Shown piece after piece: positions 1,797 to 49,380 of a stretch of 57,472 bases of DNA. The position numbers and the translations under genes were made by a program. The DNA is from a virus (lineage: Duplodnaviria > Caudoviricetes): positions 1 through 57,472 of the IMG/VR virus record IMGVR_UViG_3300044648_000205; one strand, 5' to 3'. The notes under the pieces are model-generated. The model saw nothing but the letters and a program-made list of their open reading frames with translations, was not told the DNA's origin and did not search any database. The stretch's first letter is position 1. Each line of letters opens with the position of its first letter.

Positions 1797-4406
1797 TCAC
1801 GCCCCACTCACGCCGAAGACGGAGCCGTCGCCGGCCATGCCCCGCTGGGTGGAGCCGGGCGAGACACCAAGCGTGGAGCCTGCGCTGGCCAGGCTGCGGG
1901 CACCGTTGCGGTAGACCTCGCTCGCGAACTGCTGCACGTCGGCTCCCGGCTGCATGATGTTGGTCTGCTGAAGGATGACACCGGCGGCCAGCCCGGCGGC
2001 TGCGCCGGCGGCGGCGACAGGTCCGCCAGGGTTGCCCAGCTGCATGTCGGGAGTCAGGTCGATGCCACCGGCACCGTTGACCACGGCGGCGGCCATGCCC
2101 TCGGCGGCGGCCGTCGCCTTCGGAACCATGTCCTTCAGGCCGAGCACGAGCCCCTCGCCGGACCACACGCCGATCTGACGGAACACCTTCGAGGGGCTGC
2201 CGATGCCCAAGAAGCCCAGGACGGAGTCGACGGCGTCACCGATCAGACCCTTGAACCAGTCAATGACCGCGCCCGCCATGGATGCCAGGCCGTCGATGAG
2301 ACCCCGGATCATGTTCACGCCGGCATTGAAGAGACTCGTGGCCAGGCTGGCGATAGCGTTCAGGATCTTGCCGGGCAGCTCGCCGAAGAATCGGGCAACC
2401 GCTGAGATACCGCTCGATACGGCATTTCCGATACTCGACATGGCGCTAGAAATTGCGTTAAAAATGCCCTGCCAGGCGGACCGAATGGCGTTTCCGATGC
2501 CATTCACAATGCCGGTGATCGTGTTAAAAATTCCGGCCCACACGGTCGAGATTACGCCAGCGACGGCGTTAATGACGACCGTTATAACGCTCAGAATCGC
2601 AGAGAACGCAGCGCCGATAAACGCTACAATCTGCGCCACAACGCTGATGATCAAGTTCAGTGGAGGGATCAGGATATTCAGGATCGTGGTCGCTACGGCG
2701 ATAATCGGCGGCAGCAGCGCAGCGAGCACGCCGGCCACCGCCTGGATGATCGGCATCAGGGCCGTGATCAGGCTAATGAGGGGCGGCAGCAGCGCGGCCA
2801 CCAGCTGGATGAGCGGCGGCACGAGCGGCAGCAGCGCCGCGACCAGCTGCAGGAAGATGGGGATGAGCGGCACGGCGGCGCGCACCAGCTGGGCGACCGC
2901 CACGGCGATCTGCTCGAGCACCGGCTGGATCACCGGTAGGACGGCGGCCAGGCTGTTCTCGAGGACACTGGCCACCTCCTGCAGGACCGGGGCGAGCGCT
3001 TCGAACACGGCGCCGAGCGCGCCGCCCACGATGCCGGCGATCTGCCCGAGGATGGGCAGCAGCGGGGCGGCGGCCTGCAGGAAAGTGGCGACGCCAGCGG
3101 CCAGAGCGGCGATACCGGGAGCAGCGGCCTGGAAGGCCGCGCCGATGCCCTGCACGATGGGCAGCAGGGCCGGGCCGATGGTGCTGGCCAGGTTCGCCAG
3201 GATGGGCGCCAGGGTGGCACCGATGACGCTGGCCACCTCGGCGAACACGGGCATAATCGCGGTGATGATCTCCCGCATGGAGGAGAAGAACCCCACCAGG
3301 GCGTCCTGGCCCTTGGCGCTGGTGGTGAACTCGCGGAACGCGGTAGCGATGTTCTGCAGGTTGACCAGGAATCCACCACCGGCGGTCTGCGCGGCCTGGA
3401 AAATGCCAGCGAACCCGGCACCAAAGTCGGCCAGCGCACTGAACAGCTGCTTGACCGTTTCGATGGCCTGCTTAAAGAAGTCCTGCAGCTTGCCCGAGTC
3501 GGCCGCCTGGCGGATGAACTCACCGAACCGGGTGGATACGGCGGTGATCTGCTCGGCCATGGCGGGCAGGAACGACGAGCCGGTGTTGGTGATATCAAGC
3601 AGGGCGGATAGGGCGGGCTTGAACGCTGGCGCCAGGCTCGCCACGGTGCTCTGCAGGTTGCCGAACAGGCTATCGACGCGACCCACCGTGTCACCCGACT
3701 GAGCGAAGGCCACTGCCTCCTGGGCGGCCCCGTTAAGCGATCCGGCGATGCTCTCGAACATGCGGCTGGCGAGCGGCAGATACGTATCCGCCAGCCCCTG
3801 CACGCTGCCCGACAGGCCCTCGAAGAGGCGCTGCTGTACCCCCAGCTTCATGTCGTTGAAGGCGGGGGCGACCTCCCGCAGGGCGCGCATGAACGCCTGC
3901 GCGTTGGGCGCCAACTTCTCGATGGAGGCGTTGAAGGTCGCGGTGTCTTCGCCGAGCGCGCCCATGGCGTCGGAGACCCCGGACAGACCGATCTTCAGAG
4001 TTGCGGATATGGCTGCGCCAGCGGCCAGGGCGGCAGGGAGCAGACCGGCCACCCCGGCGGCCTGCCCGAGGACGCCGACCAGCCCCACCATGCCGGTGAA
4101 CAAGGCGGACACGCCAGCCAGCGCGACCCCGGCGGCGGTGCCAATCAGCGCCAGGCGCAGCCCGGAAGTGACCATCGAGGCGAAACCACGCGCCGCGCCG
4201 CCCACCACCGACTGCAGCTGACCGAGGACGCGACGCACGTGCTTCGAGGTGTTGTCGGCGTCGTCGCGCACAGCCCGCGTGGGCTCAGCGCTGATGCTGC
4301 GGGTGGCCTCCCGCAGGGCAGCGGTCAGGGTGCCGGTGATCTCGGCGGCGAGCCCACGCGCGTCGGTGCGCAGCCGGATGGCCGCCGTCCCGATCACCTT
4401 CGCCAT
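1797..4406 (-). CDS. Tape measure protein
   Basis: 869 aa, Ala/Leu/Gly-rich helical repeats, C-terminal LGIGSPSKVF motif, follows the chaperones. Confidence 0.95.
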   Translation of the reverse strand: MAKVIGTAAIRLRTDARGLAAEITGTLTAALREATRSISAEPTRAVRDDADNTSKHVRRVLGQLQSVVGGAARGFASMVTSGLRLALIGTAAGVALAGVSALFTGMVGLVGVLGQAAGVAGLLPAALAAGAAISATLKIGLSGVSDAMGALGEDTATFNASIEKLAPNAQAFMRALREVAPAFNDMKLGVQQRLFEGLSGSVQGLADTYLPLASRMFESIAGSLNGAAQEAVAFAQSGDTVGRVDSLFGNLQSTVASLAPAFKPALSALLDITNTGSSFLPAMAEQITAVSTRFGEFIRQAADSGKLQDFFKQAIETVKQLFSALADFGAGFAGIFQAAQTAGGGFLVNLQNIATAFREFTTSAKGQDALVGFFSSMREIITAIMPVFAEVASVIGATLAPILANLASTIGPALLPIVQGIGAAFQAAAPGIAALAAGVATFLQAAAPLLPILGQIAGIVGGALGAVFEALAPVLQEVASVLENSLAAVLPVIQPVLEQIAVAVAQLVRAAVPLIPIFLQLVAALLPLVPPLIQLVAALLPPLISLITALMPIIQAVAGVLAALLPPIIAVATTILNILIPPLNLIISVVAQIVAFIGAAFSAILSVITVVINAVAGVISTVWAGIFNTITGIVNGIGNAIRSAWQGIFNAISSAMSSIGNAVSSGISAVARFFGELPGKILNAIASLATSLFNAGVNMIRGLIDGLASMAGAVIDWFKGLIGDAVDSVLGFLGIGSPSKVFRQIGVWSGEGLVLGLKDMVPKATAAAEGMAAAVVNGAGGIDLTPDMQLGNPGGPVAAAGAAAGLAAGVILQQTNIMQPGADVQQFASEVYRNGARSLASAGSTLGVSPGSTQRGMAGDGSVFGVSGA

Positions 4407-10885: not shown

Positions 10886-12709
10886 TCACGCTGCGGCAGC
10901 CGAAACGGTAACCGTCGCGGCGCTGGCGCCGGTCGGCTCGGCCGGGATGACCACGTGCAGCGACTCGATGCCCCGGAACGCCGGGAACTCGAAGGACTCG
11001 CTGAACGTCTGGAAGCGGTTCTGCCCGTTGAGCGTCGAGTCCCGAACCACGCCCAGGTCGAGCGTGCCGCCGTCCAGGTGCAGCCAATCGCCCTCGGCGA
11101 ACAGCAGGGTCGACAGGGCGTTGGGGAACGGCGGCACCGGGGCGCCGTCGGTGAGCAGCGTGTAGAACTGCGCCGGCACGACCACGTCCGGCTCGGGCAC
11201 GGTCAGGTCGGCCGGGTCGATGCCGTCCAGGTGCCACGTCGGGTTGACGTTGCGCTCGCGGAACCACGAGTCGATCGCGGCGTCCGTGGTGGCCAGCGAC
11301 TGCAGGCCGTCGCCCACCATCTGGCGGGTGATGTCCGCGCGCATCAGGTAGCGCGCCCACATCGGGGCGATCCACCGCAGCGGCGTCTCGTTCGCCAGGC
11401 GGTGCACGTTCCGGTAGTAGGCGATGACCTTGTCCATCACCACGAGGATGTCGCGGGTGGCGCCCAACAGCTGCGTGCTGAAGATGTCCTTCGACGCCTC
11501 GGTGAGGAGAGTCAGCAGTCGGTTCTCGGCGATGCGCGCGTGCGCGATGGCCTGCGCGCGGATGACCGAGTCCATGAACTCCGGGTCGAACCGGGTGGAC
11601 ATGTTCGAGAACGTGAGGCACTGGTAGATGGCCTCCACCTCGGCGGTGAGCACGCCGGGGCAGTCGATCTCAACGCACGTCTTCGGGACGATCGGGTCGG
11701 CCTCGTCGTCCTCGTTGTCCCAGAAGCCGATACCGCCGGTCTGGGTGACGCCGTCGAGCGCCGGGCGGAACTGGATGCCGCCACGGTCGGCGGCGAACCG
11801 GACGAGCGCGTCCCGAACTGGGCGGTCGGTGTCGCCGATCGTGCGAATGTCGTACAGGTTCTCGAGCGGCGCGCAGAAGCCTGCGGCCGTGAGAGCCGCG
11901 CCGGCCTCGTCGAAGCCGTTCCGGGTGGCGTGCACCGAGCGGGCCTCATCCACCACGGCCTCGACGAGACGCATGTTGGTCTCGGCGTCGGCACTGGCGG
12001 TGAGCTGGCGGGCCTCCGGGTACTCGCCGCGCACGGTGGCGACGGTGTACCGCTCGTAGCCGTTCTGCCGGACGGCACCGACTGCGCGGAGCTTCTCGGC
12101 GAAGGCGTCCCACAGCTGGCTGCGGGTGAGCTTCGCGCCGGGGGAGAACTTGCTCAGGCCCGCGCTGGCGGTCGCGTTGAACGCCACCTGGGGGAGCTTG
12201 CGGCCGGCGCCCTGCGGCTTCTGAACGCCACCCAGCTTGCGGCGGCCAGCGGATGCGGTCACGGCGTCCTTGCCTTCCTGGCCGTCGGCGTCGCCGTCGC
12301 CCTCGTTCTCGTCGCCGTCGTCGGTGGCGTCGTCGTCGCCCTCGTCCTCGGGCTTCTGGTTGGCGAGCGCCTCGGCGTCGCCGGTGCCGTGCTGGGCCTC
12401 GACGGCTTCCTGAACGGCGGTGGCGTCGCTCTCGGTGGCGCCGGTCTCGTCGCCCTCGCTGAAGATGGCGTCCAGCTCGCTGACCGAGGAGCTGAAGTCA
12501 GCACCCACGGCGGCGAGCTTGTCCTGCTGACCCTTGATGGCCACGGCGGCGTCGCGCAGCGCGGTGATGGCGTCGCGGGACTCCTGGGTGGCGGGCTGGT
12601 CGCGGACGGCGCTGAAGTCCTCGCGGATGGCGGCGAGTGCATTCGCCAGCTCATCGGCAGTGGCCTCGGCGAGCCGGCCCAGGATGCCCGCGTCAAACTT
12701 CGCGGTCAT
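10886..12709 (-). CDS. Major capsid (hexamer) protein with N-terminal scaffold-like region
   Basis: 607 aa from MTAKFD; LTAAGFCAPLENLYD, RGGIQF, KTCVEIDCP, LDLGVVRDSTLNGQNRFQTFSE. Confidence 0.9.
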   Translation of the reverse strand: MTAKFDAGILGRLAEATADELANALAAIREDFSAVRDQPATQESRDAITALRDAAVAIKGQQDKLAAVGADFSSSVSELDAIFSEGDETGATESDATAVQEAVEAQHGTGDAEALANQKPEDEGDDDATDDGDENEGDGDADGQEGKDAVTASAGRRKLGGVQKPQGAGRKLPQVAFNATASAGLSKFSPGAKLTRSQLWDAFAEKLRAVGAVRQNGYERYTVATVRGEYPEARQLTASADAETNMRLVEAVVDEARSVHATRNGFDEAGAALTAAGFCAPLENLYDIRTIGDTDRPVRDALVRFAADRGGIQFRPALDGVTQTGGIGFWDNEDDEADPIVPKTCVEIDCPGVLTAEVEAIYQCLTFSNMSTRFDPEFMDSVIRAQAIAHARIAENRLLTLLTEASKDIFSTQLLGATRDILVVMDKVIAYYRNVHRLANETPLRWIAPMWARYLMRADITRQMVGDGLQSLATTDAAIDSWFRERNVNPTWHLDGIDPADLTVPEPDVVVPAQFYTLLTDGAPVPPFPNALSTLLFAEGDWLHLDGGTLDLGVVRDSTLNGQNRFQTFSESFEFPAFRGIESLHVVIPAEPTGASAATVTVSAAAA

Positions 12710-12833
12710 GCTCGTTCCCTCTCTCGTTTCGGTCGGAGGGGGCGCGGCTGGGCCGTTCCTGCCGGGCATGCTCGGCTGGGCCGGCGTCCGGTGTCTCTCC
12801 GTTGCGGCGAGCTTAAGAGGCCGGACACGTGGA

Positions 12834-15168: not shown

Positions 15169-17856
15169 TCAGCGTGCGCCGGGGCGATCCTTCGTCCACT
15201 GGGCCACGGCGGCGCACGCCTGCGCGCGGCTACCGGGGTTCACGTCCTGATCGCCCGGGAAGTTCAGGTCACCGGTGGCGCACATCTTCTTGGCAGCGTT
15301 CACCGCGCTGGCGATGGCGTGCGACTGGCTCATCCCCTTCTTCTTCAGGTGGTTGGCGATGCGCTTGATGTACGACGGCAGGTGTAGCACCTTGCGCCCG
15401 GCGGCCGTGATGGTCAGCTTGTCGCCCAGGTGATCGGCGTCGTGCTCGGCAGCATCCTCGTCGTCGCACAGATCCACGTCCTCGGCGAGCCACGGGTGAT
15501 CGGCCTCGAGGAGGTACGCCAGCTCGGCCTCGGCCAGCTCGGTGGCCGTCGGGCCGTCGCCCAGCAGCTCGCCCAGATCGGTGATGGCGGCCTGCTGCTC
15601 GCCAGTGAGGCGCTGCGCATTGATCCACGCGATGACCGTGCGGAACTCCTCTTCGCTCACTCCGAGGGCCTGCGTGCCCGTGAGCGGGCCGTCAGCGGGT
15701 GCTTCCGAGTCGGGTGCGTGGATGACCCCGGCGGCCACGATGGACAGCGGCTGGCCGGATGCGACGCGCGCACGGGGAACGGGGAAGCCAGGGGTGTTGA
15801 CCCCGAGGGCGGCCAGCATCTCCAGCTGCCCCCGAACGGTGCGCCAGTCGCCCGAGAACACCGTGCCCCGTGCGCGGTGCTCGGCCACCTCGTCCAGGCC
15901 GGGCATGAGTCGGCCGGCGAACCAGATGCCGTGTTCGTCCTCACCCACGGCGATCTCGAAGGCGGCCGTGCCGGTGTTGTCGTAGTGCTCGGCGGCGGCC
16001 ATCGCGCCGGCCCGGATGTCGGCGTGCCCGGTGCCGATGGTGCCGTAGCCCACCGGCAACGTGATGGCCTGGCCGCTCTCGTCGCGCGCCCGCACCGAGT
16101 GCACCATGAAGTAGGCGTAGCCACTGGCCGAGTGCGGGGGCGTGACGCACTGGCCGGCGAAACCGACATGGCAGGTGTTCCACTCGGCGAGGTGGCCGAA
16201 CACGCGGCCGTCGTCGGTGACGGTGAGCGGCGTGGGCTCGGTCAGCTTCGGGTCGGTGAACCACTCGGCGGGCGGGAGGGTCGCGGCCGACGCCACCAGG
16301 GCAGGCTGGCCGCCACCCAGCGGGTAGTCGGTGACGTTGTCGCCGATGGCCACGCGCAGGCGGTCGAACTCGATGGGGCCGGTGTAGGTGAGCTGCTCAG
16401 TCGGCACGCCGTAGCCAGCGGTGACGTGCGGGATGAACGGCGAGTGCTGCTCGGGGAAGTTGACCTGACCGAGCGCGTTGCGCAGCTCGCTGGCGAGATT
16501 GCCCTGCTGGTATTCGATGTCCATCCGGTCGCCCTGGCCGTCGAACAGGTAGACGGTGGCCGGGTCGCGGCCGTTGTCGCCGTTGGGGTTGAACACGGCG
16601 TGCGAGAAGACGGTGGCAGTGACCGGACCCTTCTGGAAGGGCGCGCGGTAGCTGTCCGACTGCGGGATGGCCGAGCCGTCCTCGGCGGCCTCGGCGGCGA
16701 GCCGGGCGTACTGCGCTTCGGCGTCGGTGAACTCGCGGGCGATCCTGTGCACGGCGGCCAGCATGTCCGCGTCCCACTGGTCCACCTCGTCCCCCAGGTA
16801 GGCCAGGGTCATGTGCAGCTCGTCGGCAGGGTCACCACCGGGGACGGTGAGGATGTTCGGGTTGGCCGGCACGAGGGCGACCATCCCGGACGTGGAGTAG
16901 TCCTGTGCGCCGGGCGTCTCGTCGGCGTCGAACAGGTCCCCGTCGGCCAGGGCGTTGAGGCGCTCGGCGTCGATGGCCGCCAGGATGGCGGTCTGGCCGG
17001 TGACGCACGGCGAGCAGGTGTCGCCGATGTCGGCGGAGCGCCACGCGGGCACCCGTGCGCCGGCGGTCAGAGCCTCGGCGGCCTCGGCCACGGGCATGCC
17101 GTCGAGCGCCACGTAGGCGTCCTGGAAGGCGGGCTGACCGACCAGCGTGGTGGCCGCCACCACGGCGGCGTGCACCACGATGCGGTCCGGGTGGTCACCG
17201 GGCTGCGCGTCCTCGGCGTACTCGAACTCGGCCTCCATGGCGGACAGGTCCACGCTGTTGCCGCGCAGCGCGCCGTCCTTCACCAGCTGGTAGGCGGACT
17301 TCTGCGGCGCGGCCGGCACGTCGTCGTACATCCAGCCCTTGGCGGACCACACGTAGGTGCCCTCGGGAAACGGCTTGCCGGTCGACAGCTGGGTGACTTC
17401 GGGGCCGTCGTGCCGGGTGGCCTCGGTGATGGCACCGACCAGCCACGTGGCGGCGTCACCCTCGGCCCCGTGGGTCGAGCGGGTCTGCGCGTACAGGCCC
17501 AGCGGGAGTGCCCGCGTGGACAGGGCGCCCGGGTTGATGAACCGGCCGTCGCTGGTCTCGAGGCCCTCCACCACCATGACGGGCAGCGTGATGGGGTGCG
17601 CGCCCTCGGGCATCTCGACCGGGGGTGCCTCGGCGGTCTCGACTGCAGCGGTCACGGTCTCCTCCTGGGTGCGCATCGCGCTGGGAACGGGCACGCCCGG
17701 GGCGGCCTCGACATGGACGGCATCAGACAGGCCGGACCCGCACACGCAGTTGCCGGCACCGGAGTGGATGTCTCGGGCGTACACGTGCGGCTCGCTGTAC
17801 TGACCGGAGAATGGCCCCACGCTTCCCTCGTAGCCGGGAACCTCGGTGGTGGTCAT
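15169..17856 (-). CDS. Capsid maturation protease fused to a 2H phosphoesterase domain
   Basis: ETSDGR...GNSVDL...TTLVGQPAF protease region; two HxT motifs (LHMTLAYLG, PHVTAGY); GRVFGHLAEWNTCH...SGDWR domain; follows portal. Confidence 0.8.
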   Translation of the reverse strand: MTTTEVPGYEGSVGPFSGQYSEPHVYARDIHSGAGNCVCGSGLSDAVHVEAAPGVPVPSAMRTQEETVTAAVETAEAPPVEMPEGAHPITLPVMVVEGLETSDGRFINPGALSTRALPLGLYAQTRSTHGAEGDAATWLVGAITEATRHDGPEVTQLSTGKPFPEGTYVWSAKGWMYDDVPAAPQKSAYQLVKDGALRGNSVDLSAMEAEFEYAEDAQPGDHPDRIVVHAAVVAATTLVGQPAFQDAYVALDGMPVAEAAEALTAGARVPAWRSADIGDTCSPCVTGQTAILAAIDAERLNALADGDLFDADETPGAQDYSTSGMVALVPANPNILTVPGGDPADELHMTLAYLGDEVDQWDADMLAAVHRIAREFTDAEAQYARLAAEAAEDGSAIPQSDSYRAPFQKGPVTATVFSHAVFNPNGDNGRDPATVYLFDGQGDRMDIEYQQGNLASELRNALGQVNFPEQHSPFIPHVTAGYGVPTEQLTYTGPIEFDRLRVAIGDNVTDYPLGGGQPALVASAATLPPAEWFTDPKLTEPTPLTVTDDGRVFGHLAEWNTCHVGFAGQCVTPPHSASGYAYFMVHSVRARDESGQAITLPVGYGTIGTGHADIRAGAMAAAEHYDNTGTAAFEIAVGEDEHGIWFAGRLMPGLDEVAEHRARGTVFSGDWRTVRGQLEMLAALGVNTPGFPVPRARVASGQPLSIVAAGVIHAPDSEAPADGPLTGTQALGVSEEEFRTVIAWINAQRLTGEQQAAITDLGELLGDGPTATELAEAELAYLLEADHPWLAEDVDLCDDEDAAEHDADHLGDKLTITAAGRKVLHLPSYIKRIANHLKKKGMSQSHAIASAVNAAKKMCATGDLNFPGDQDVNPGSRAQACAAVAQWTKDRPGAR

Positions 17857-17859
17857 CGG

Positions 17860-20652
17860 TCAGCCCTCCTTCAGGAAGCGGGACTGCAGGGCCTGGATGG
17901 TGCGCCACTGGTCGCGCACCTCCTGCGCGGTGGTGCCGGTGCGTCCGGCGGCGTCGTCCATGTCGGCCAGGTCGAGGATGTCCTGGGTCGGTCGGGTCGG
18001 GACGGCCAGGCGCTCGCGGACCTGCTCGCCGTACTCGGGCACGGCGTAGCCCTCGACGAAGTCACACATGCAGCCCCGGTGATCCCCCGGCCGGTGGAAC
18101 GGCCCGACCCACTGGTAGGCGGGCGACGGCTGCAGCTTCGGGTCCGACCAGTTGGTGAACCGCTCGCCCTCGAGGTCGCGGTGCGGTTCGAACTGCCGCT
18201 TCATCGGCGTGATGCCGTACACCCACAGGTAGCCAACGGTGATGACGCCGGCCTCTTCGAGCACGTCCGCGACGGCCGAGCCGTTGTGCAGGCCGTTGAT
18301 CGCTTCGCCGGTGACCGGGCGGCCGAACTCGTCGAGCCCACCGGACGCTTCGGGGAGTCCTCCGATCTCGGCGAGCGCGGTGCGGATCAGGTAGGGCGGA
18401 ATCTGAACGTCGGGCATCTCGCCCTGGCCGTCGTCCAGCAGCCCGTCCACGTCCTGGTACAGGGCGGCGTCCGCCAGCTCCTCGAGCCGGACCTGCAGGT
18501 GCGACCACGCGGAGTCGATGCGGCTGGCCATTTCGGCGTGCATGCGCTCGCCTGCGGCCCTGCCCTCCCGACTGTCCGGGTTGTAGCCCACCAGCTTCAG
18601 CACGCCGGGCACGATGCGCTCGATGGCGGCCAGCACCCAGCGGGCGAACTTCTCGGACAGCTCCTCCCACGCCTCGGCGAGCAGGAACGGTGTGTCGGCG
18701 CCGAGCTGCAGTGCCTGCGTGCGCCCGACCTTCGCCGGCCACTCCTGCACGGGCATGCCGCGCAGGGACGCGGCGATGGACGGCACGCGGGTGGCCTTGG
18801 CCCGCAGGCGGGAACCGGCTCGTTCGCGCGCCCGGGTGAGAGCGGAGTCGGCGGCCTGCAGAATGGCGTCCCGCAGTGCGCGGTCCACCTGCATGAGCGC
18901 CCGGCTGGCCTCGGTGTCGAGTCGATAGCCGGCGTCCGGCGGTGCCTGCGCCAGGAAGCTGTCGAGGTCGGCCACCAGGTTGGCGGCCTTCTGCGCGTTC
19001 TCCTTCGCTACGTAGCGGGCCAACGCGTCCATATCGATCATCGAGCCACCGGCGGCCACGGCGGGCGGCGCGGTGCTCGGCGTGCCGGTACCACCGGTGC
19101 CAGCCGGGTCGGACTCGGCCTCCGGTACCTGCGTTCGGGTGGCCGGCAGCTGAGCGGGGGCGGGCATCGGAGGCAGTTCGGCGCCGGACTGCTCGGCGGC
19201 CCACTGCAGGATCGCCAGGGCGGCCGACTGGTCGATGCCCTGCTTGGCGGCGATCAACTGCAGGATCTCCTCGGGGGAGGGCGCGTCCTGGTCGCTGAAG
19301 CCGAGACCCTCTCGACCGGCGGACGGCCCGATGAGCGCGCGGTCCAGGGCGTCGAGGGTGTCCTGGCGACGGTTGGGGTTCTCGGTGAGCTGCCCGGCCG
19401 TGTACCAGATGCGGACACGGGCCACCTGGTCCGGGGGGAATCCCTGGGCGGCGAGCGCGGCACGCAGCATGGCGGCCGTCAGGGAGTCCACCATCATCCG
19501 AATGGACGGCTCGAGGAACTGGCGGAACGTGGAGTTGTCGATCTGCCAGGCGGTCCAGTGGTTGACCTGGGCCATGCCGGTGAGGATCTCGGGCGGGATG
19601 TCGAGGGAGGACGCCAGGCGCCCCAGGGCCTTCTCGAGCTTGGCCAGCAGGGTGGGGGAGTCCTCGCGCTCGAACTTGACGTGCCGGAACTCCTTCAGGT
19701 CGTCGCGCTGGCCGGTGAGCACCATGGGCACGACGGCGCCCGCGTCGCCCTCGTTCGAGATGGGGGCGAGCATGGCGCCGGTGAAGTCGGTCATGAACCG
19801 GCTGGCCTGGTCTTCGGGCTTGTCGCTCTCGTTCTTCGTGTTGCGGACCCGGACCATGCCGTCGGGGATCAGCACGACGCCGTTGGTCATGATGCGGGAG
19901 CGGGCGGCGGCGCGCAGTTCCCGGCCGATCAGGCTGATGTCCTCGAGTACGTCCATCAGGGCGTTGAGCGCCGAGTCGGCCAGGTGACTGCGCCGGGGGT
20001 GCGGCACCCACAGGCGGTACAGCTCTTCCTGGTCGAGGTCGACGCGTCGCGGCTGGCCCAGCTCATCCTTCACGGTCATGGTGCGGCCCGAGATGTCCAC
20101 GTCGTCCACGCTGCGGATCTTCCACACCTCGTTGCCGGTGTAGCGATCGGTGTACCCGTGCAGGTAGCACTCGCCGGCCACGTCGAAGTTTTCCGACCAC
20201 ACCCCGAGGAAGCCGTAGCCGTCCGCGAGCGGCAGGCGTGCCAGCTCGGCCTCGGCCGCTTCGATCAGGTCCGGCGGCAGGGTGATGCGCGCGGCCTTCT
20301 CCGGGTCCTCGTCGTTGCGCAGGTCAACGGCGATCGGCTCGTCTTCGGGGTCGTTGGGGTCCACCTGGGCGATGTAGAACTTGACCTTCGAGATGGCCTT
20401 GGCGCGGAACTGCAGGGCGAACCGAAGTTCACCGATCATGTCCCGGTAGCCCCAGGCGAGGGTCTGCCACTGCTGGCGGTTGCCGGCCATGGCGCGCAGG
20501 CGCTCGGCGGTGGTGGGCTCGATGCGCGCACCGGCGGCGCGCAGTACCGACGGCATGGCGCGTGCGCTCCACGCCACGCGCTCGGACTCCACGGCGCGGA
20601 CGCGCTCCATGACGCGCCGGTTGGCGTACGTCTCGCGCTTGCTCTGGGGCAC
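17860..20652 (-). CDS. Portal protein fused to MuF-like domain
   Basis: WQTLAWGYRDMIGEL, LDIPPEILTG..NHWTAW portal motifs; C-term FEPHRDLEG...PGDHRGCMC. Confidence 0.85.
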   Translation of the reverse strand: MPQSKRETYANRRVMERVRAVESERVAWSARAMPSVLRAAGARIEPTTAERLRAMAGNRQQWQTLAWGYRDMIGELRFALQFRAKAISKVKFYIAQVDPNDPEDEPIAVDLRNDEDPEKAARITLPPDLIEAAEAELARLPLADGYGFLGVWSENFDVAGECYLHGYTDRYTGNEVWKIRSVDDVDISGRTMTVKDELGQPRRVDLDQEELYRLWVPHPRRSHLADSALNALMDVLEDISLIGRELRAAARSRIMTNGVVLIPDGMVRVRNTKNESDKPEDQASRFMTDFTGAMLAPISNEGDAGAVVPMVLTGQRDDLKEFRHVKFEREDSPTLLAKLEKALGRLASSLDIPPEILTGMAQVNHWTAWQIDNSTFRQFLEPSIRMMVDSLTAAMLRAALAAQGFPPDQVARVRIWYTAGQLTENPNRRQDTLDALDRALIGPSAGREGLGFSDQDAPSPEEILQLIAAKQGIDQSAALAILQWAAEQSGAELPPMPAPAQLPATRTQVPEAESDPAGTGGTGTPSTAPPAVAAGGSMIDMDALARYVAKENAQKAANLVADLDSFLAQAPPDAGYRLDTEASRALMQVDRALRDAILQAADSALTRARERAGSRLRAKATRVPSIAASLRGMPVQEWPAKVGRTQALQLGADTPFLLAEAWEELSEKFARWVLAAIERIVPGVLKLVGYNPDSREGRAAGERMHAEMASRIDSAWSHLQVRLEELADAALYQDVDGLLDDGQGEMPDVQIPPYLIRTALAEIGGLPEASGGLDEFGRPVTGEAINGLHNGSAVADVLEEAGVITVGYLWVYGITPMKRQFEPHRDLEGERFTNWSDPKLQPSPAYQWVGPFHRPGDHRGCMCDFVEGYAVPEYGEQVRERLAVPTRPTQDILDLADMDDAAGRTGTTAQEVRDQWRTIQALQSRFLKEG

Positions 20653-28289: not shown

Positions 28290-28646
28290 GGAGCGCATCC
28301 AACCGCCCCGGTTCGGACCTCTGGACCCGACCTACCCAGCTGGGCGGGGAGTGTGATGCCTCTCGGCGTACACGGCCCCGGCTGGGCGGTTTCGGCGTGC
28401 CCTGGATGCGAGCCCACGCGAGTGGTCTCGGCCGGATCGTGCCTTGCGCTACATGATCGCCGATGCGACCCGGTGGCCAAACCAGGCCGATCGACGGCAT
28501 GCCGCCTTCGACTACCGACTTCCCCTCGCTCGGCGTCCCGAGGTCTTGGGGGCGAAGCTGGGGCCGCCCTCGGCACGGCCAGGCATCCGAGGGCGGCGTG
28601 CAGGCTTCCACCCTGCGGGTCCGGCCGAAGCCGGGGAAGTAGGCGG
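28290..28646 (-). ncRNA. Candidate structured ncRNA(s), distal part of RNA operon
   Basis: Helices 28633-40/28518-25, 28641-46/28502-07, 28403-10/28294-301, 28384-91/28301-08; UUCG and GNRA tetraloops; no credible ORF. Confidence 0.5.
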
Positions 28647-28723
28647 GGAAGTGCTGCCGTTACACCATCCCGGCAGACCCTGGTGAGTCCCACCGGGGAG
28701 GGATTCGAACCCCCACCTTCCCC
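28645..28723 (-). ncRNA. Circularly permuted tRNA mimic (YrlA-like topology)
   Basis: GGGGAA - T arm GGGGG-TTCGAAT-CCCTC - acceptor-like stem closed by ACCA loop - D arm GTGT-AACGGCA-GCAC - TTCCCC. Confidence 0.75.
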
Positions 28724-28725
28724 TA

Positions 28726-28796
28726 GGCACACGGGACCGGATTCGAACCGGCATGCCACCCCGTCAGGGGCTCGCTCACCCTTGGCGTACCCGCAT
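28726..28796 (-). tRNA. Atypical or pseudo tRNA with 4-nt anticodon loop (undetermined isotype)
   Basis: Acceptor ATGCGGG/CCCGTGT, T arm GCCGG-TTCGAAT-CCGGT, anticodon arm GCCCC-TGAC-GGGGT. Confidence 0.6.
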
Positions 28797-28917
28797 TGAC
28801 CACGTGCCCACCTGTGCGGGCGGTCTTCCGGCGTGTCCGCACCGACGCCGGAAGTTGGAGCGTGGCCTGCCCCTGTCGTTTGTCGATCACCCCGCCCCGA
28901 CAGGTAGGGCGGGAGAG

Positions 28918-29070
28918 TCACTTCCACTTGTGGCCGCAGGGGCAGGAGTGCTTCCCCTTGTGGCCCTTGGGTCTGATCGTGCAGTGATGGTCGCCGTGGT
29001 TGAGGCGACAGCTCAACGGGGTCCGCGTGCTGGCCGGGCACGGCAGAAAGCTGTCTACCGAACTTCTCAT
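28918..29070 (-). CDS. 50-aa Cys/His-rich peptide inside the RNA operon
   Basis: CRLNHGDHHC...HKGKHSCPCGHKWK; GAGG upstream but very close to the ATG. Confidence 0.55.
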   Translation of the reverse strand: MRSSVDSFLPCPASTRTPLSCRLNHGDHHCTIRPKGHKGKHSCPCGHKWK

Positions 29071-29160
29071 GGCCTCGCTTCCGGCAGTTGTTTGACAGGC
29101 GGGCACGGACGGCGCCGAGATGCCAGGCGTGACCCTGGCGCCGCCGGTCCGTGCCCGGCG

Positions 29161-29232
29161 TAGTGCGTACGGGGGTTGCACCCGTGTCTCCGCCTTGAGA
29201 GGGCGGAATCCGTGCTACTGGACCAACGCACC
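29161..29232 (-). tRNA. tRNA-Glu(CTC), no encoded CCA
   Basis: GGTGCGT/ACGCACT acceptor, GTCC/GGAT D stem, CCGCC-CTCTCAA-GGCGG anticodon arm, ACGGG-TGCAACC-CCCGT T arm. Confidence 0.8.
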
Positions 29233-38523: not shown

Positions 38524-40137
38524 CTACCTCACACTCGTGGTGGGCATCTGCATGCGGGCCGGGCCGCCTTGATGCCGGGAGATGGTGGCGTGGGCCGAGA
38601 GGATCTCAGTGCCGCTGCCCTGGTCGTCGAGGTAGAGCACGGCGTACACGAGCGCGTCGAGCCGGTCGGGGCTCTCGGGCTTGCTCGCCTCCCACACGCA
38701 CAACTGGTCTTCGAGGATCTTGTGCTCACCGACGTGGTGAACGTTGCGCTTCTCGTAGAGGGCCGACGCGGGCTCGGCACGCACCCGCTTGGCCTTCTTC
38801 GCGCGGACCGTGTCGGTGGCGATCGAGCCGGGCCGGCGGCCGGCGATCTCCAGCTGGGCGTCGAGCATGCCGGGGATGTAGTCACCACCGTTGTTGACTT
38901 CGACGATGACCGAGTTGGCGCCCCACCGGTCGTAGGTCTCGATGACCGTATCCATGACAGTGGCCGGCGACTCTCGCAGGGAGGCGTCTTCGAGGACGTA
39001 CATCTGCCCGTCGGTGGCCAGGCCCACCACGATCAGGCCGGTTTCGTCGGCGTCTTCGCCGGACGTGACGGCGGGGTCAATGCCGATCACGATCTTGACC
39101 AGCTGGATGCCGTGAATGGCGAGCGCCAGGTAGACGCGGGCGGTGTGCCGGATGCGGTCGGCCTCGTCCGGGTCGGCGCCGTCCGGGATCTCCACCGGGA
39201 TCTCGAGGGCTTCGGGCAACGGGACGCGCTCGAGGTCGAGCCAGGACCGCTTCCACAGGGCGCCGGGGATGTCGTCGAGGAGGTCTCCGCCGAGTTCCTG
39301 GCGGCCGAGCCGGGTGCCGTCGTACTTCTTGTGCAGTGCCCGCAGGGTGACAGTGGGCAGGTTGGCCGCGTTGTCGTCGGTAGTGCCCCGGCTGGTGATG
39401 CACCGGGGGTCGACAAGGAGTTCCTTGATCAGGTGCAGCGGGAGGGGCGTGGTGGTGGCCACGCACTGCGGGTGCCGGCCGAGGCGCAGGCCGAACTTCA
39501 TCATGTCCCACGCGTCGGGGGCGTCGCGGGCAACCTGTGCGAGTTCCTCGACCCACGCGAAGTGGTGCTGCGGGCCACGCAGGCGGGCGGGCTTCTCGGC
39601 GCTGAACAGCTTGGCACGCGAACCGGTCGAGTGGATCTTGATCTCACCCAGCGAGCGGTTCCACGTGTAGTCACCCCCGGAGCGCTTCGGCCCCTCGACC
39701 CAACCCCACCGGTCGAACACGGCCAGCAGGCCGGACTCGCCCTCCACGCAAGTATCGCGGGCGTCGGCGTAGGTGGGCGCCAGGATGCACACTCGCCAGC
39801 GGGATTCGGTGGCGAGCTTCTCGGCCGCGAGTTCGGCGGCGGAGCGGGTCTTGCCGCAGCCACGGCCGGCGAGGAACAGCCAGTCGTCCCAGTCGCCGTA
39901 GGGCTCGCGCTGCTCGGGCCGGCACGCCGAGCACGAGTGACAGCGGTGGCAGTCCTCCCCGTGGATGTGGCACGCACGGTCGGGGCCACGCCAGTTGGGC
40001 GCCAGGCCGGGGGTCGGGAACTTGGCGGGGTCGCGACAGTCGGACTCGCGCCAGTCGGTGATCAGCGCCAGGAACGCGGGCCGGATGCGCTGGCGGCTCC
40101 GGTCCAGGATGCGATCGGCGAGGGCGGCGAGCGGCAC
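38524..40137 (-). CDS. terL: Terminase large subunit
   Basis: Walker A AGRGCGKT, LRGPQHHFAWVEE, IGIDPA, VEVNNGG, SPDRLDALVYA. Confidence 0.95.
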   Translation of the reverse strand: MPLAALADRILDRSRQRIRPAFLALITDWRESDCRDPAKFPTPGLAPNWRGPDRACHIHGEDCHRCHSCSACRPEQREPYGDWDDWLFLAGRGCGKTRSAAELAAEKLATESRWRVCILAPTYADARDTCVEGESGLLAVFDRWGWVEGPKRSGGDYTWNRSLGEIKIHSTGSRAKLFSAEKPARLRGPQHHFAWVEELAQVARDAPDAWDMMKFGLRLGRHPQCVATTTPLPLHLIKELLVDPRCITSRGTTDDNAANLPTVTLRALHKKYDGTRLGRQELGGDLLDDIPGALWKRSWLDLERVPLPEALEIPVEIPDGADPDEADRIRHTARVYLALAIHGIQLVKIVIGIDPAVTSGEDADETGLIVVGLATDGQMYVLEDASLRESPATVMDTVIETYDRWGANSVIVEVNNGGDYIPGMLDAQLEIAGRRPGSIATDTVRAKKAKRVRAEPASALYEKRNVHHVGEHKILEDQLCVWEASKPESPDRLDALVYAVLYLDDQGSGTEILSAHATISRHQGGPARMQMPTTSVR

Positions 40138-48297: not shown

Positions 48298-48797
48298 TGG
48301 CCGGCGAGACCATGCTGACCGTGGTCGGCAACCTGACCGGCGACCCGGAGCTGCGGTTCACCCAGTCCGGCGCGGCTGTCGTCAACTTCACCGTGGCCTC
48401 CACGCCCCGCGTGTTCGACAAGCACAGCGGGGAGTGGAAGGACGGAGACGCGTTGTTCCTGCGCTGCAATCAGTGGCGCCAGCCGGCCGAGAACGTCGCC
48501 GAGTCGCTCACCAAGGGCGCCCGGGTGATCGTGACCGGTCGACTGAAGCAGCGCAGCTTCGAGACCCGGGAGGGCGAGAAGCGCACGGTCATGGAGCTGG
48601 AGGTGGACGAGGTCGGTCCGTCCCTGCGGTACGCCACGGCCAAGGTCAACAAGGTGTCGCGCTCCGGCGGCGCCCAGGCGTCCGGTACCGGCTGGACCGA
48701 CGGTCAGGGCGCACCGGCGAACGACCCGTGGGGCTCGGCGCCCCCTCCCTACTCCGGTGGCGGCTCCGGCGGGTTCTCCGATGAGCCGCCGTTCTAG
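48297..48797 (+). CDS. ssb: Single-stranded DNA-binding protein
   Basis: [17 protein letters not shown]...DEPPF, actinobacterial SSB. Confidence 0.95.
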
Positions 48798-48816
48798 GCC
48801 CGGCACGGTGACGATG

Positions 48817-48851
48817 GACGGTGGCCACCCGATCAAGGTGGCCACCGTCCC
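48817..48851 (+). terminator. Hairpin after ssb
   Basis: GGACGGTGGCCACC-N7-GGTGGCCACCGTCC. Confidence 0.6.
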
Positions 48852-49026
48852 GCCCACCGAGCCGGCCGGACAACCGAGCGCGCCGACGACGATGACCTTC
48901 ATGCCCCACGTAGAGGTCACCCGGTGGAGCGTTGGATGGAACAACGCAGGCGAACGCTGGACTGCGCCGGTGCGCGGCGTCTACGACGTGTCCACCTGGC
49001 CGCCCCGACTGATCAAGGAGATTCCC

Positions 49027-49380
49027 ATGGCAGACCCGATCGAGGCCGCCGAGCACTTCACGCAGGAGGCGGTGGACCGGGCGGTGCGGATCGCCACCGA
49101 GGCGAAGAAGCGCATGCGCGCCGAGCAGCTGGAGCGCGTGCGCCAGCGCTTCAGCCATCACCCGCCCACACACCCTGTGGTGGTCGAGGCGCACGAGCGT
49201 GCACGAGCCCTGGGCGAGATGTTCTCCATCTGGCTGTTGGACCTGCCGGAGTGCCCGGAGAAGGACCAGGCGCTGTTTTCGGTCGACAGCGCCACGATGT
49301 GGGCCAACGCGGCGATCGCCCGGACGCAGTTGGGGATCACGCCGGAGAACGCCCCCGACGTTGACACCCCCGAGAAGTAG
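49027..49380 (+). CDS. Acb2/Tad1-like nucleotide-signal sponge protein
   Basis: RFSHHPP...PECPEKDQALFSVDSATMWANAAIAR; AAGGAG RBS. Confidence 0.7.
   Translation: MADPIEAAEHFTQEAVDRAVRIATEAKKRMRAEQLERVRQRFSHHPPTHPVVVEAHERARALGEMFSIWLLDLPECPEKDQALFSVDSATMWANAAIARTQLGITPENAPDVDTPEK

Follow-up and report, generated by a model that had tools for sequence, protein, structure and literature searches.

What kind of gene is it in which the 3' half of a transfer RNA (tRNA) precedes its 5' half, the acceptor stem is closed by a loop and a short helix stands in the place of the anticodon stem? Such an element, of 79 nucleotides (nt), lies on the minus strand at 28645..28723 of the complete virus genome IMGVR_UViG_3300044648_000205 (an IMG/VR virus record of 57,472 nt with about 68% G+C; this whole stretch is the window referred to below), where a prediction made from the letters alone had proposed a circularly permuted tRNA mimic. 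Judged by its sequence, its fold and its homologues, it appears to belong to a small family of modules in the tRNA clusters of actinophage genomes that have no Ro60/TROVE gene. There is about an even chance that it acts as a functional, Ro-independent and non-decoding mimic of the tRNA elbow, made from a circularly permuted tRNA-Glu-like body.

The segments listed in the original prediction are all present, and the four-way junction that they form is the minimum-free-energy structure given by RNAfold. Written as DNA along the minus strand and with its flanks, the element reads GCCTA, GGGGAAG, GT, T arm, acceptor hairpin, ATG, GTGT-AACGGCA-GCAC, TTCCCC and GCCTA. The 5' strand of the closing helix, GGGGA (28719..28723), corresponds to tRNA anticodon-stem positions 39-43 and pairs with 28645-28649; it is followed by a variable region of 4 nt, AGGU (28715..28718), without a variable (V) stem-loop, and by the T arm GGGGG-UUCGAAU-CCCUC (28698..28714). 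By analogy with tRNA and YrlA, a 15:48 pair is possible between the U beside the T stem and the second A in the D loop. The closed acceptor-like hairpin (28669..28697) runs on from the T stem without a linker and consists of 8 base pairs (bp), a bulged G, 4 bp and the loop ACCA (28681-28684), its DNA letters being CCCGGTGG-G-ACTC-ACCA-GGGT-CTGCCGGG. Then come A-U-G (28666-28668), which contains the U8/G9 equivalents, the D arm GUGU-AACGGCA-GCAC (28651..28665), as drawn in the ARAGORN cloverleaf, and, at 28645..28650, a U equivalent to position 26 together with the 3' strand of the closing helix, UCCCC (positions 27-31). A closing stem GGGGAA/TTCCCC in place of the anticodon stem had been proposed; the pairing and its position stand, but homology limits the helix to 5 bp, GGGGA/UCCCC, which is the length of an anticodon stem. 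The sixth pair is A-U here and A.A in most relatives, as at tRNA positions 26/44.

The sequence contains every nucleotide required for the U8-A14, 15-48, G18/G19-T loop and T54-A58 contacts and, by analogy, these tertiary contacts would be expected to form. The D arm is of the tRNA-Glu type, with a 4-bp GUGU/GCAC stem containing U11-A24 and U13.G22 and with position 47 missing from the element, and it differs by one D-loop base from the D arm of the tRNA-Glu(CUC) of a related virus, G001. On the D arm and the 4-nt variable region, and in comparison with the GluRS identity rules, the core of the element looks tRNA-Glu-like. At its 3' edge, the 3' strand of the closing helix is present twice owing to a 12-nt tandem repeat (28629-28652, minus strand, 11/12 identical), and the repeat could alternatively pair over 14 nt with 28710-28723, in competition with the T stem.

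In the native order, 28645-28723 yields no tRNA call with ARAGORN and none with Rfam even at E<=10. The two halves were therefore swapped back by script, with the ends joined either directly or through one 5-nt flank; the directly joined version gave no call, whereas with the 5-nt flank as loop ARAGORN reported a 72-nt tRNA, 'Arg(CCU)', with an 8-bp acceptor stem. Under the same treatment, calls were obtained for 0/300 dinucleotide shuffles and 0/300 random windows of the same genome, so that with ARAGORN the re-permuted sequence does exceed the background, as the original prediction required. Of the five family members tried, this copy included, four are called as tRNAs after re-permutation. 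Because ARAGORN recognizes the re-permuted element and none of these shuffles and windows, the body of the element is truly tRNA-like. The anticodons obtained in this way are Arg CCU here, Ser(CGA) in contig L145, Asn or Gly in L150, Arg or Pyl in G011 and none in G004; they vary from member to member and one copy has none, thus there is no conserved anticodon.

These other members were found in viral and metagenome contigs. Relatives gathered by means of the portal protein carry tRNA clusters, and one of them, G004, has a copy of the element directly 5' of its tRNA-Glu(UUC), with 83% identity over the aligned columns, although the two portal proteins are 53% identical and the flanks of the element do not align. 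The G004 copy has an insert of about 30 nt in place of the distal acceptor hairpin and no ACCA. A further relative, G003, has the same surrounding hairpin and tRNA as G004 and lacks the element, a clean presence/absence of 104 nt; from this pair, the element is a discrete module. A model built from the two copies of this phage and G004, R1, matches the window at a single place, the element. R1 was run on 38 viral records, and pattern scans brought the clear homologues to four: besides G004, these are L145, a metagenome contig (57.5 bits; between tRNA-Trp and tRNA-Arg), L150, from record G194 (49.1 bits; clustered with tRNA-Glu and tRNA-Gly and provided with an additional outer 6-bp helix) and, more distantly, G011 (44.7 bits; directly 3' of a tRNA in a large array). 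Clear members always stand in tRNA clusters, at differing places in differing clusters.

Six rows were fitted to the model in alignment A5, one of them being the ordinary tRNA 3' half of L148. In this alignment, 92.7% of the cells are paired against 79.5% in shuffles, the observed value being reached by 0/500 shuffles, and pairs changed on both sides number 10 against 4.1 in shuffles; with the partners slid along as a control, pairing falls to 35-59%. One of the five pairs of the closing helix is invariant over the six rows and four vary (three of them on both sides in one row). The T loop is kept in all homologues and two T-stem pairs show compensatory changes, while the basal 8 bp of the acceptor hairpin covary, with 5/8 pairs changed on both sides, and its distal part is not conserved. 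The acceptor strands of the two 'halves' are complementary to each other in every member, and the D stem is invariant across the alignment. The family is real and the element is not a product of chance: the homologues carry compensatory changes, and ARAGORN calls the element after re-permutation and none of the controls. The folding energy is not the evidence for this, as its z of -1.06, with 27/200 shuffles folding equally well, is unremarkable in DNA of 68% GC.

Other routes to relatives gave no further members. An exact 24-nt pattern of T arm and acceptor strand had no viral match, and when 50,697 phage records were searched by blastn with the region or the element, there was either no match or only T-arm-sized pieces of ordinary tRNAs with a coverage of at most 36%. 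The 63 loci found with a 19-nt 5' pattern in species-representative genomes included no R1 match at E<=0.01; seven contain ordinary tRNAs according to ARAGORN (6 Asp, 1 Ala), which made no call in the other 56. R1 found nothing in five genomes reached through such loci either, a weak test in which 26 to 150 candidates were scored per genome. A 16-nt identity between the 3' flank of the element and three relatives is a coincidence, since it falls in a coding region near the portal gene. L148 (record G195; 24.3 bits with R1) was rejected as a member, being a tRNA in ordinary order with an oversized anticodon loop; it shares with the family the 3' strand of the anticodon stem, the variable region and the T arm. 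A lone conserved T arm, CGCGGGTTCGAATCCCGCC, followed by GGGACGATC, stands 5' of tRNA genes in G001 (L016:837-870) and G004 (L083, reverse strand, about 1000-1095); it may be left over from a tRNA 3' half or another tRNA-like RNA.

The permuted topology itself is already known and was published for YrlA, a Y RNA class described in print as circularly permuted tRNA mimics (bioRxiv 10.1101/312249), with a fold reported to be a true tRNA mimic that tRNA enzymes recognise (PMC4201824; bioRxiv 10.1101/312249). Binding by Rsr/Ro60 and modification by TruB and Dus are further marks of YrlA. In keeping with what had been predicted, the order of modules in the Rfam YrlA model (RF02553) is the same as in the element, namely helix, T arm, closed acceptor stem-loop, D arm and helix, the acceptor stem-loop of YrlA is of variable length, and the elbow nucleotides of the T loop and D loop are found in both. 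The proposed search of the native sequence with that model gave 12 bits against a cut-off of 69 (E 0.66 per genome; E 6.6 in cmscan), although the Ro-linked YrlAs of phages also score below this cut-off, with 33-52 bits. A second model, R2, was built from six Ro-linked actinophage YrlAs that were found with the Rfam model and not with a pattern derived from the element. It gives 87-112 bits for its training rows and 37-59 bits for further modules in Ro loci, whereas the element has no match at E<=1; in the family, L150 scores 22.4 bits, L145 18.2 bits and G004 has no match. The six Ro-linked YrlAs have in common a UCGGUUAYC block, a V arm and the D arm GUAGCUCA..GGUAGAGC, while the element has a tRNA-Glu-type D arm instead of the conserved GCUCA..GGUAGAGC, no V arm and no UCGGUUAYC block.

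The absence of a long Ro-binding stem and of a Ro60/TROVE gene, which had been noted at the outset, holds for the complete 57-kb genome. The closing helix comprises 5-7 bp, with a complete tRNA-like gene on its upstream side and independent hairpins on its downstream side, and the proposed Rsr contact motif, GNCGAAN0-1G, does not occur on the minus strand from 28724 to 29160. No TROVE match was obtained in the genome at E<=1 (control matches were obtained in 2 of 14 genomes), so that the element has no TROVE gene within 4 kb on the same strand, the distance by which YrlAs were recognized by Chen et al. (2014; PMC4201824). The other carriers agree, as TROVE was not found in G004 (complete), in G011 and G194 (both incomplete records) or in G195, the record of L148, and tblastn for TROVE on L145 gave nothing below E 2.3. 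The element resembles the tRNA-like module of YrlA but is not a YrlA; among all the YrlA criteria tested, it shares the module order only. The YrlA of Mycobacterium smegmatis likewise has a closed acceptor stem within a permuted tRNA-like RNA of an actinobacterial system, but its acceptor stem has 7 bp and the RNA is bound by Rsr, whereas the element has 8+4 bp, an ACCA tetraloop in a loop that is not conserved, and no Rsr context.

A search for the T loop together with this D arm retrieved 14 viral loci, seven of the permuted type, one ambiguous (G001) and six that are ordinary tandem tRNAs, the class of false positives against which Chen et al. warned (PMC4201824). Four of the five permuted-type records tested encode a TROVE protein, and their best YrlA matches (36-46 bits) lie within about 1 kb upstream of TROVE on the same strand.

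The original prediction also placed a discriminator and CCA in the joining loop, where the gene could be opened, and this part did not survive the comparison of homologues, as the ACCA loop is found in this copy only among the five clear members and caps a 12-bp helix here. The tetraloop appears to be incidental and is not a feature of the family. A similar outcome applies to the proposal that the GCCTA flanks rebuild an anticodon loop containing CCT, since flanks differ by member and the resulting anticodons are arbitrary; the rebuilt loop here would have 5 nt, or 7 nt with G rather than U at position 33. The 5' flank GCCUA (28724..28728) is made up of the discriminator G of the upstream tRNA-like gene and a 4-nt spacer, and the 3' flank GCCUA (28640..28644) is a direct repeat of it within the 12-nt tandem duplication (28629-28652). 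In L145, exact GCGAA repeats abut the closing helix (L145:3222-3226 and 3299-3303), in G011 the flanks match at 4/5 positions, in G004 they read GCUA and GCCU, and L150 has no repeat. Two exact flank repeats among five members are unlikely by chance (by a rough estimate, about 0.002 per element); they could derive from a short anticodon loop in an ancestor, be scars of an insertion or act as processing signals. The pentamer GCGAA also occurs in the oversized anticodon loop of the L148 tRNA, which has the same anticodon stem and T arm.

Permuted tRNA genes of algae give rise to decoding tRNAs by way of a circular intermediate, with the participation of the eukaryotic/archaeal splicing endonuclease and a bulge-helix-bulge motif. 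In those of Cyanidioschyzon merolae and some green algae the acceptor ends are joined by an intervening sequence (Soma 2014, PMC3978253), as they are in the element; however, the element has no conserved anticodon and stands in a bacteriophage, and a bulge-helix-bulge motif was neither seen nor sought. Another known system consists of phage tRNAs whose altered anticodon loops let them escape tRNA-targeting defences; these, too, are tRNA-derived genes in actinophage clusters, and a role in the conflict with tRNA nucleases of the host has been proposed for them (van den Berg et al. 2023, PMC10264068). They are complete and decoding, whereas the element has no anticodon loop and its acceptor end is sealed. 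Two other possibilities were rejected. A two-piece tmRNA is ruled out, as neither the ARAGORN tmRNA search nor the Rfam tmRNA models found one in the window, and so is an attP site carrying a tRNA 3' fragment, as two family searches gave no match to a tyrosine integrase or large serine recombinase and the 3' half is followed in the element by the 5' half that matches it, which an attP would not need.

The anticodon-less elbow decoy of the original prediction remains, as an inference, the best functional reading. According to it, the element would be transcribed together with the neighbouring tRNA and tRNA-like genes and released by the nucleases that trim those tRNAs, with its 5' end coming from the cut after the discriminator of the upstream gene. 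All of the nucleotides needed for a tRNA L-shape are present, and the RNA might adopt it, by analogy with the YrlA crystal structure, by stacking the T arm on the acceptor hairpin and the D arm on the closing helix, with the D loop and T loop meeting at the elbow. Since the acceptor end is sealed and there is no anticodon, such an RNA could be neither charged nor read and would have to act by being bound, occupying or tethering a protein that reads the tRNA elbow and the D and T stems. A host tRNA-directed enzyme or a tRNA-targeting defence nuclease would be the likely target, without involvement of Ro60/Rsr. The presence in the phage of a counter-defence-type gene with an Acb2/Tad1 hairpin domain was counted in favour of this mimic.

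Several points weigh against a functional mimic. The element is sporadic, and among the eight complete close relatives by portal protein a strong R1 match was found in G004 only, while the match in G001 (25.9 bits) looks like a remnant, with a lone T arm followed by the 5' half of a tRNA-Glu. Conservation of the D and T loops in homologues, which the original prediction demanded, was found, with the T loop kept throughout, but the patterns used to collect the members came from this element and A5 was fitted to the model, so that the apparent conservation of T loop and D arm is inflated. Moreover, 3/5 of the substitutions between this copy and that of G004 weaken helices, and R1 found no match in 151 sampled genomes of Actinomycetes, with the same weak coverage of 26 to 150 candidates scored per genome. 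Finally, both the RNA and its role as a decoy are putative.

One alternative is evolutionary debris, in which tandem duplication or recombination of phage tRNA-Glu-like genes would have left the 3' half of one copy and the 5' half of the next as a passive, functionless residue. The lone T-arm remnant of G001, which could be an intermediate, precedes by 25 nt an intact tRNA-Glu(CUC) whose D arm is the same, L150 reads 5' half, loop, 3' half and 5' half, there is a local tandem duplication at the 3' edge of the element, and several other degenerate tRNA-like genes occur in these phage clusters, in addition to the sporadic distribution in the clade. Nevertheless, debris would not be expected to keep four helices and the tertiary-contact nucleotides intact where the surroundings have diverged beyond alignment, nor to accumulate compensatory changes in the T, acceptor and closing helices, to maintain complementary acceptor strands in every member and to appear as the same module at differing places in differing clusters, and we consider this origin rather unlikely. 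The element could also be a miniature mobile DNA element inserted beside tRNA genes, with the closing helix as terminal inverted repeats, the 5-nt flanks as target-site duplication and a transposase acting in trans. Exact 5-nt direct repeats here (GCCTA) and in L145 (GCGAA), partial ones in G011, the clean filled and empty sites of G004 and G003 and the different sites in different clusters would fit, but the G004 junction shows no duplication and L150 none, the 3' GCCTA is explained by the 12-nt tandem repeat, the inverted repeats, at 5-7 bp, are very short, an RNA structure that covaries makes up the interior, and neither a transposase nor a tyrosine integrase or large serine recombinase was detected in two family searches. 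We regard this origin as very improbable.

Two further explanations also make the element an RNA with a function. It could be a stripped-down Y RNA served by Ro60/Rsr of the host, with the short closing helix or the flanks as binding site, and apart from the shared topology this is suggested by Ro-encoding actinophages in which modules that have this D arm stand no more than about 1 kb from TROVE on the same strand, by G007, which has long-stem, full-length YrlA-like RNAs and yet no TROVE gene, and by the letters GGGGAA/UUCCCC, which are those of the middle stem of the Rfam YrlA consensus. The low score with the Rfam model and the lack of an R2 match, of a GNCGAAN0-1G motif 5' of the element, of a long terminal stem and of the UCGGUUAYC block and V arm of the six Ro-linked YrlAs make this unlikely. 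Alternatively, the permuted gene could be opened, with RNase P and 3' trimming cutting the acceptor hairpin and CCA being kept or added to give a two-piece, possibly chargeable RNA, or its outer ends could be joined into a decoding tRNA. We know of no bacterial pathway for the maturation of permuted tRNAs. A precedent for cleavage is the M. smegmatis YrlA, which is reported to be cut by RNase P at the acceptor loop and to receive CCA in vivo (PMC4201824); in addition, NCCA directly follows a 7-bp acceptor strand in the related phage modules of G007 and G008, and ARAGORN reads tRNA-Arg(CCU) when one GCCTA joins the ends. However, ACCA forms a tight tetraloop after a 12-bp helix here instead of ending a 7-bp stem, the four other clear members have no ACCA, the same joining operation yields arbitrary anticodons and none for G004, the rebuilt loop would have 5 nt, or 7 nt with G at position 33, and no gene for RtcB or another RNA ligase was found in the phage, so that there is little probability in this explanation. 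For members with 7-8-bp stems, opening by RNase P and addition of CCA would be possible, and nothing here points to it.

If the preferred reading of a functional elbow mimic is correct, its interest lies in the module itself. YrlA-type mimics have so far been recognised through their association with Ro60, and no partner of the tRNA-like module is known; the family described here looks like that module alone, without the Ro-binding part, with a tRNA-Glu-type core and in the tRNA arrays of phages without Ro. If expressed, it would indicate that the tRNA-like module has a function of its own, it would provide a minimal bait for the proteins that bind it, and it would bring non-decoding mimics, some permuted and others with a shortened anticodon loop, into the debate over the purpose of phage tRNA genes. 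The family also documents plausible intermediate stages in the proposed descent of Y RNAs from tRNAs. If not expressed, it would be a well-preserved by-product of tRNA-gene rearrangement, of limited interest. A bolder version, which we regard as improbable, would have a Ro-independent lineage of permuted tRNA-Glu-like RNAs moving between phage tRNA arrays as a cassette of about 80-105 nt and serving, together with the adjacent 'anticodon-less' tRNA, as a decoy that disarms tRNA-targeting immunity or toxins. This would represent a new class of RNA-based anti-defence factor and a living intermediate for the origin of Y RNAs from tRNA dimers.

The genome in which the element resides is that of an actinophage. 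Its siphovirus-type genes, all on the minus strand, include those for the large terminase (38524-40137), the portal (17860-20652), the major head protein (10886-12769) and the tape measure protein (1797-4406); the portal protein is at most 32% identical to those of the nearest cultured phages, and all matched phages infect Actinomycetota. The RNA gene cluster occupies the minus strand of about 1 kb without coding signal between two orphan open reading frames, which have neither a Pfam or PHROGs match nor relatives in viral contigs. In the order of the minus strand, it consists of tRNA-Glu(CUC) (29161..29232; 51.7 bits), a tRNA-like gene with a 4-nt anticodon loop, a 4-nt spacer, the element, two small hairpins and an 11-bp GC-rich hairpin (28564..28596). 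The 11-bp hairpin and a hairpin with a UUCG cap (28621-28634) were located by inverted-repeat analysis. The 11-bp hairpin is a possible terminator without a U tract, and a terminator scan of the minus strand gave no terminator of canonical type.

The tRNA-like neighbour (28728..28796, minus strand), which is probably co-transcribed with the element, forms a full cloverleaf with the anticodon loop UGAC and is reported by ARAGORN as 'tRNA-??? (ga)', with 24 bits against a cut-off of 29 for the Rfam tRNA model. Its acceptor stem, D arm, variable region and T arm are all canonical, and the acceptor stem contains the wobble pairs U2.G71 and G3.U70, the second of which is the AlaRS identity pair. 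Comparable 'anticodon-less' tRNAs were seen in the relative G005 (L086:1501-1572; loop GAGA, 50.6 bits as tRNA) and in L151 (CCC-GAC-GGG).

The search of 28 open reading frames against Pfam gave only two matches, with no dedicated gene for an RNA ligase, RNA repair or a tRNA enzyme, and the Rfam search of the window gave no group I intron or other family at gathering score. The Acb2/Tad1 hairpin domain (32.1 bits, cut-off 27) belongs to a 207-amino-acid open reading frame at 48757-49380 on the plus strand and is the fold of phage sponges against cyclic-nucleotide immune signals. An 895-amino-acid virion-associated protein (15169-17856, minus strand), whose gene adjoins that of the portal, shows similarity to the 2H phosphoesterase ('2'-5' RNA ligase') superfamily over residues 343-488, weakly and below threshold, and matches a PHROG 'RNA ligase' over residues 403-514. 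The RNA-ligase-like signals in the phage are limited to these two matches, and no RtcB gene is present.

Outside this genome, Ro-like proteins are found in 354 phage records, mostly of Mycobacterium and Streptomyces phages. Among the papers listed by literature searches, none describes Ro-less, stem-less YrlA-like modules in phage tRNA clusters; 22 phage YrlAs have been tabulated (PMC4201824) and might bear on this. Within 2 kb of the Ro genes of the Streptomyces phages Blueeyedbeauty and Wofford and of the Microbacterium phage A3Wally there is no YrlA at E<=0.05. The Ro loci L116, L117, L118 and L119 (G006, G010, G009 and G008, respectively) contain tandem arrays of 2-4 YrlA-like modules upstream of TROVE; they have in common the UCGGUUAYC block before the V arm, and none reaches the Rfam YrlA gathering score. 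In G007 (L096:89-353), a tandem pair of full-length YrlA-like RNAs (24 and 23 bits), each with a long terminal stem, stands at the start of a complete 62.7-kb phage genome without a TROVE gene. Moreover, an unannotated YrlA of 52 bits lies between tRNA-Gln and tRNA-Ile in the tRNA array of the Gordonia phage Forza (MK814760.1; L133:4760-4859), about 1.2 kb downstream of its Ro-like gene.

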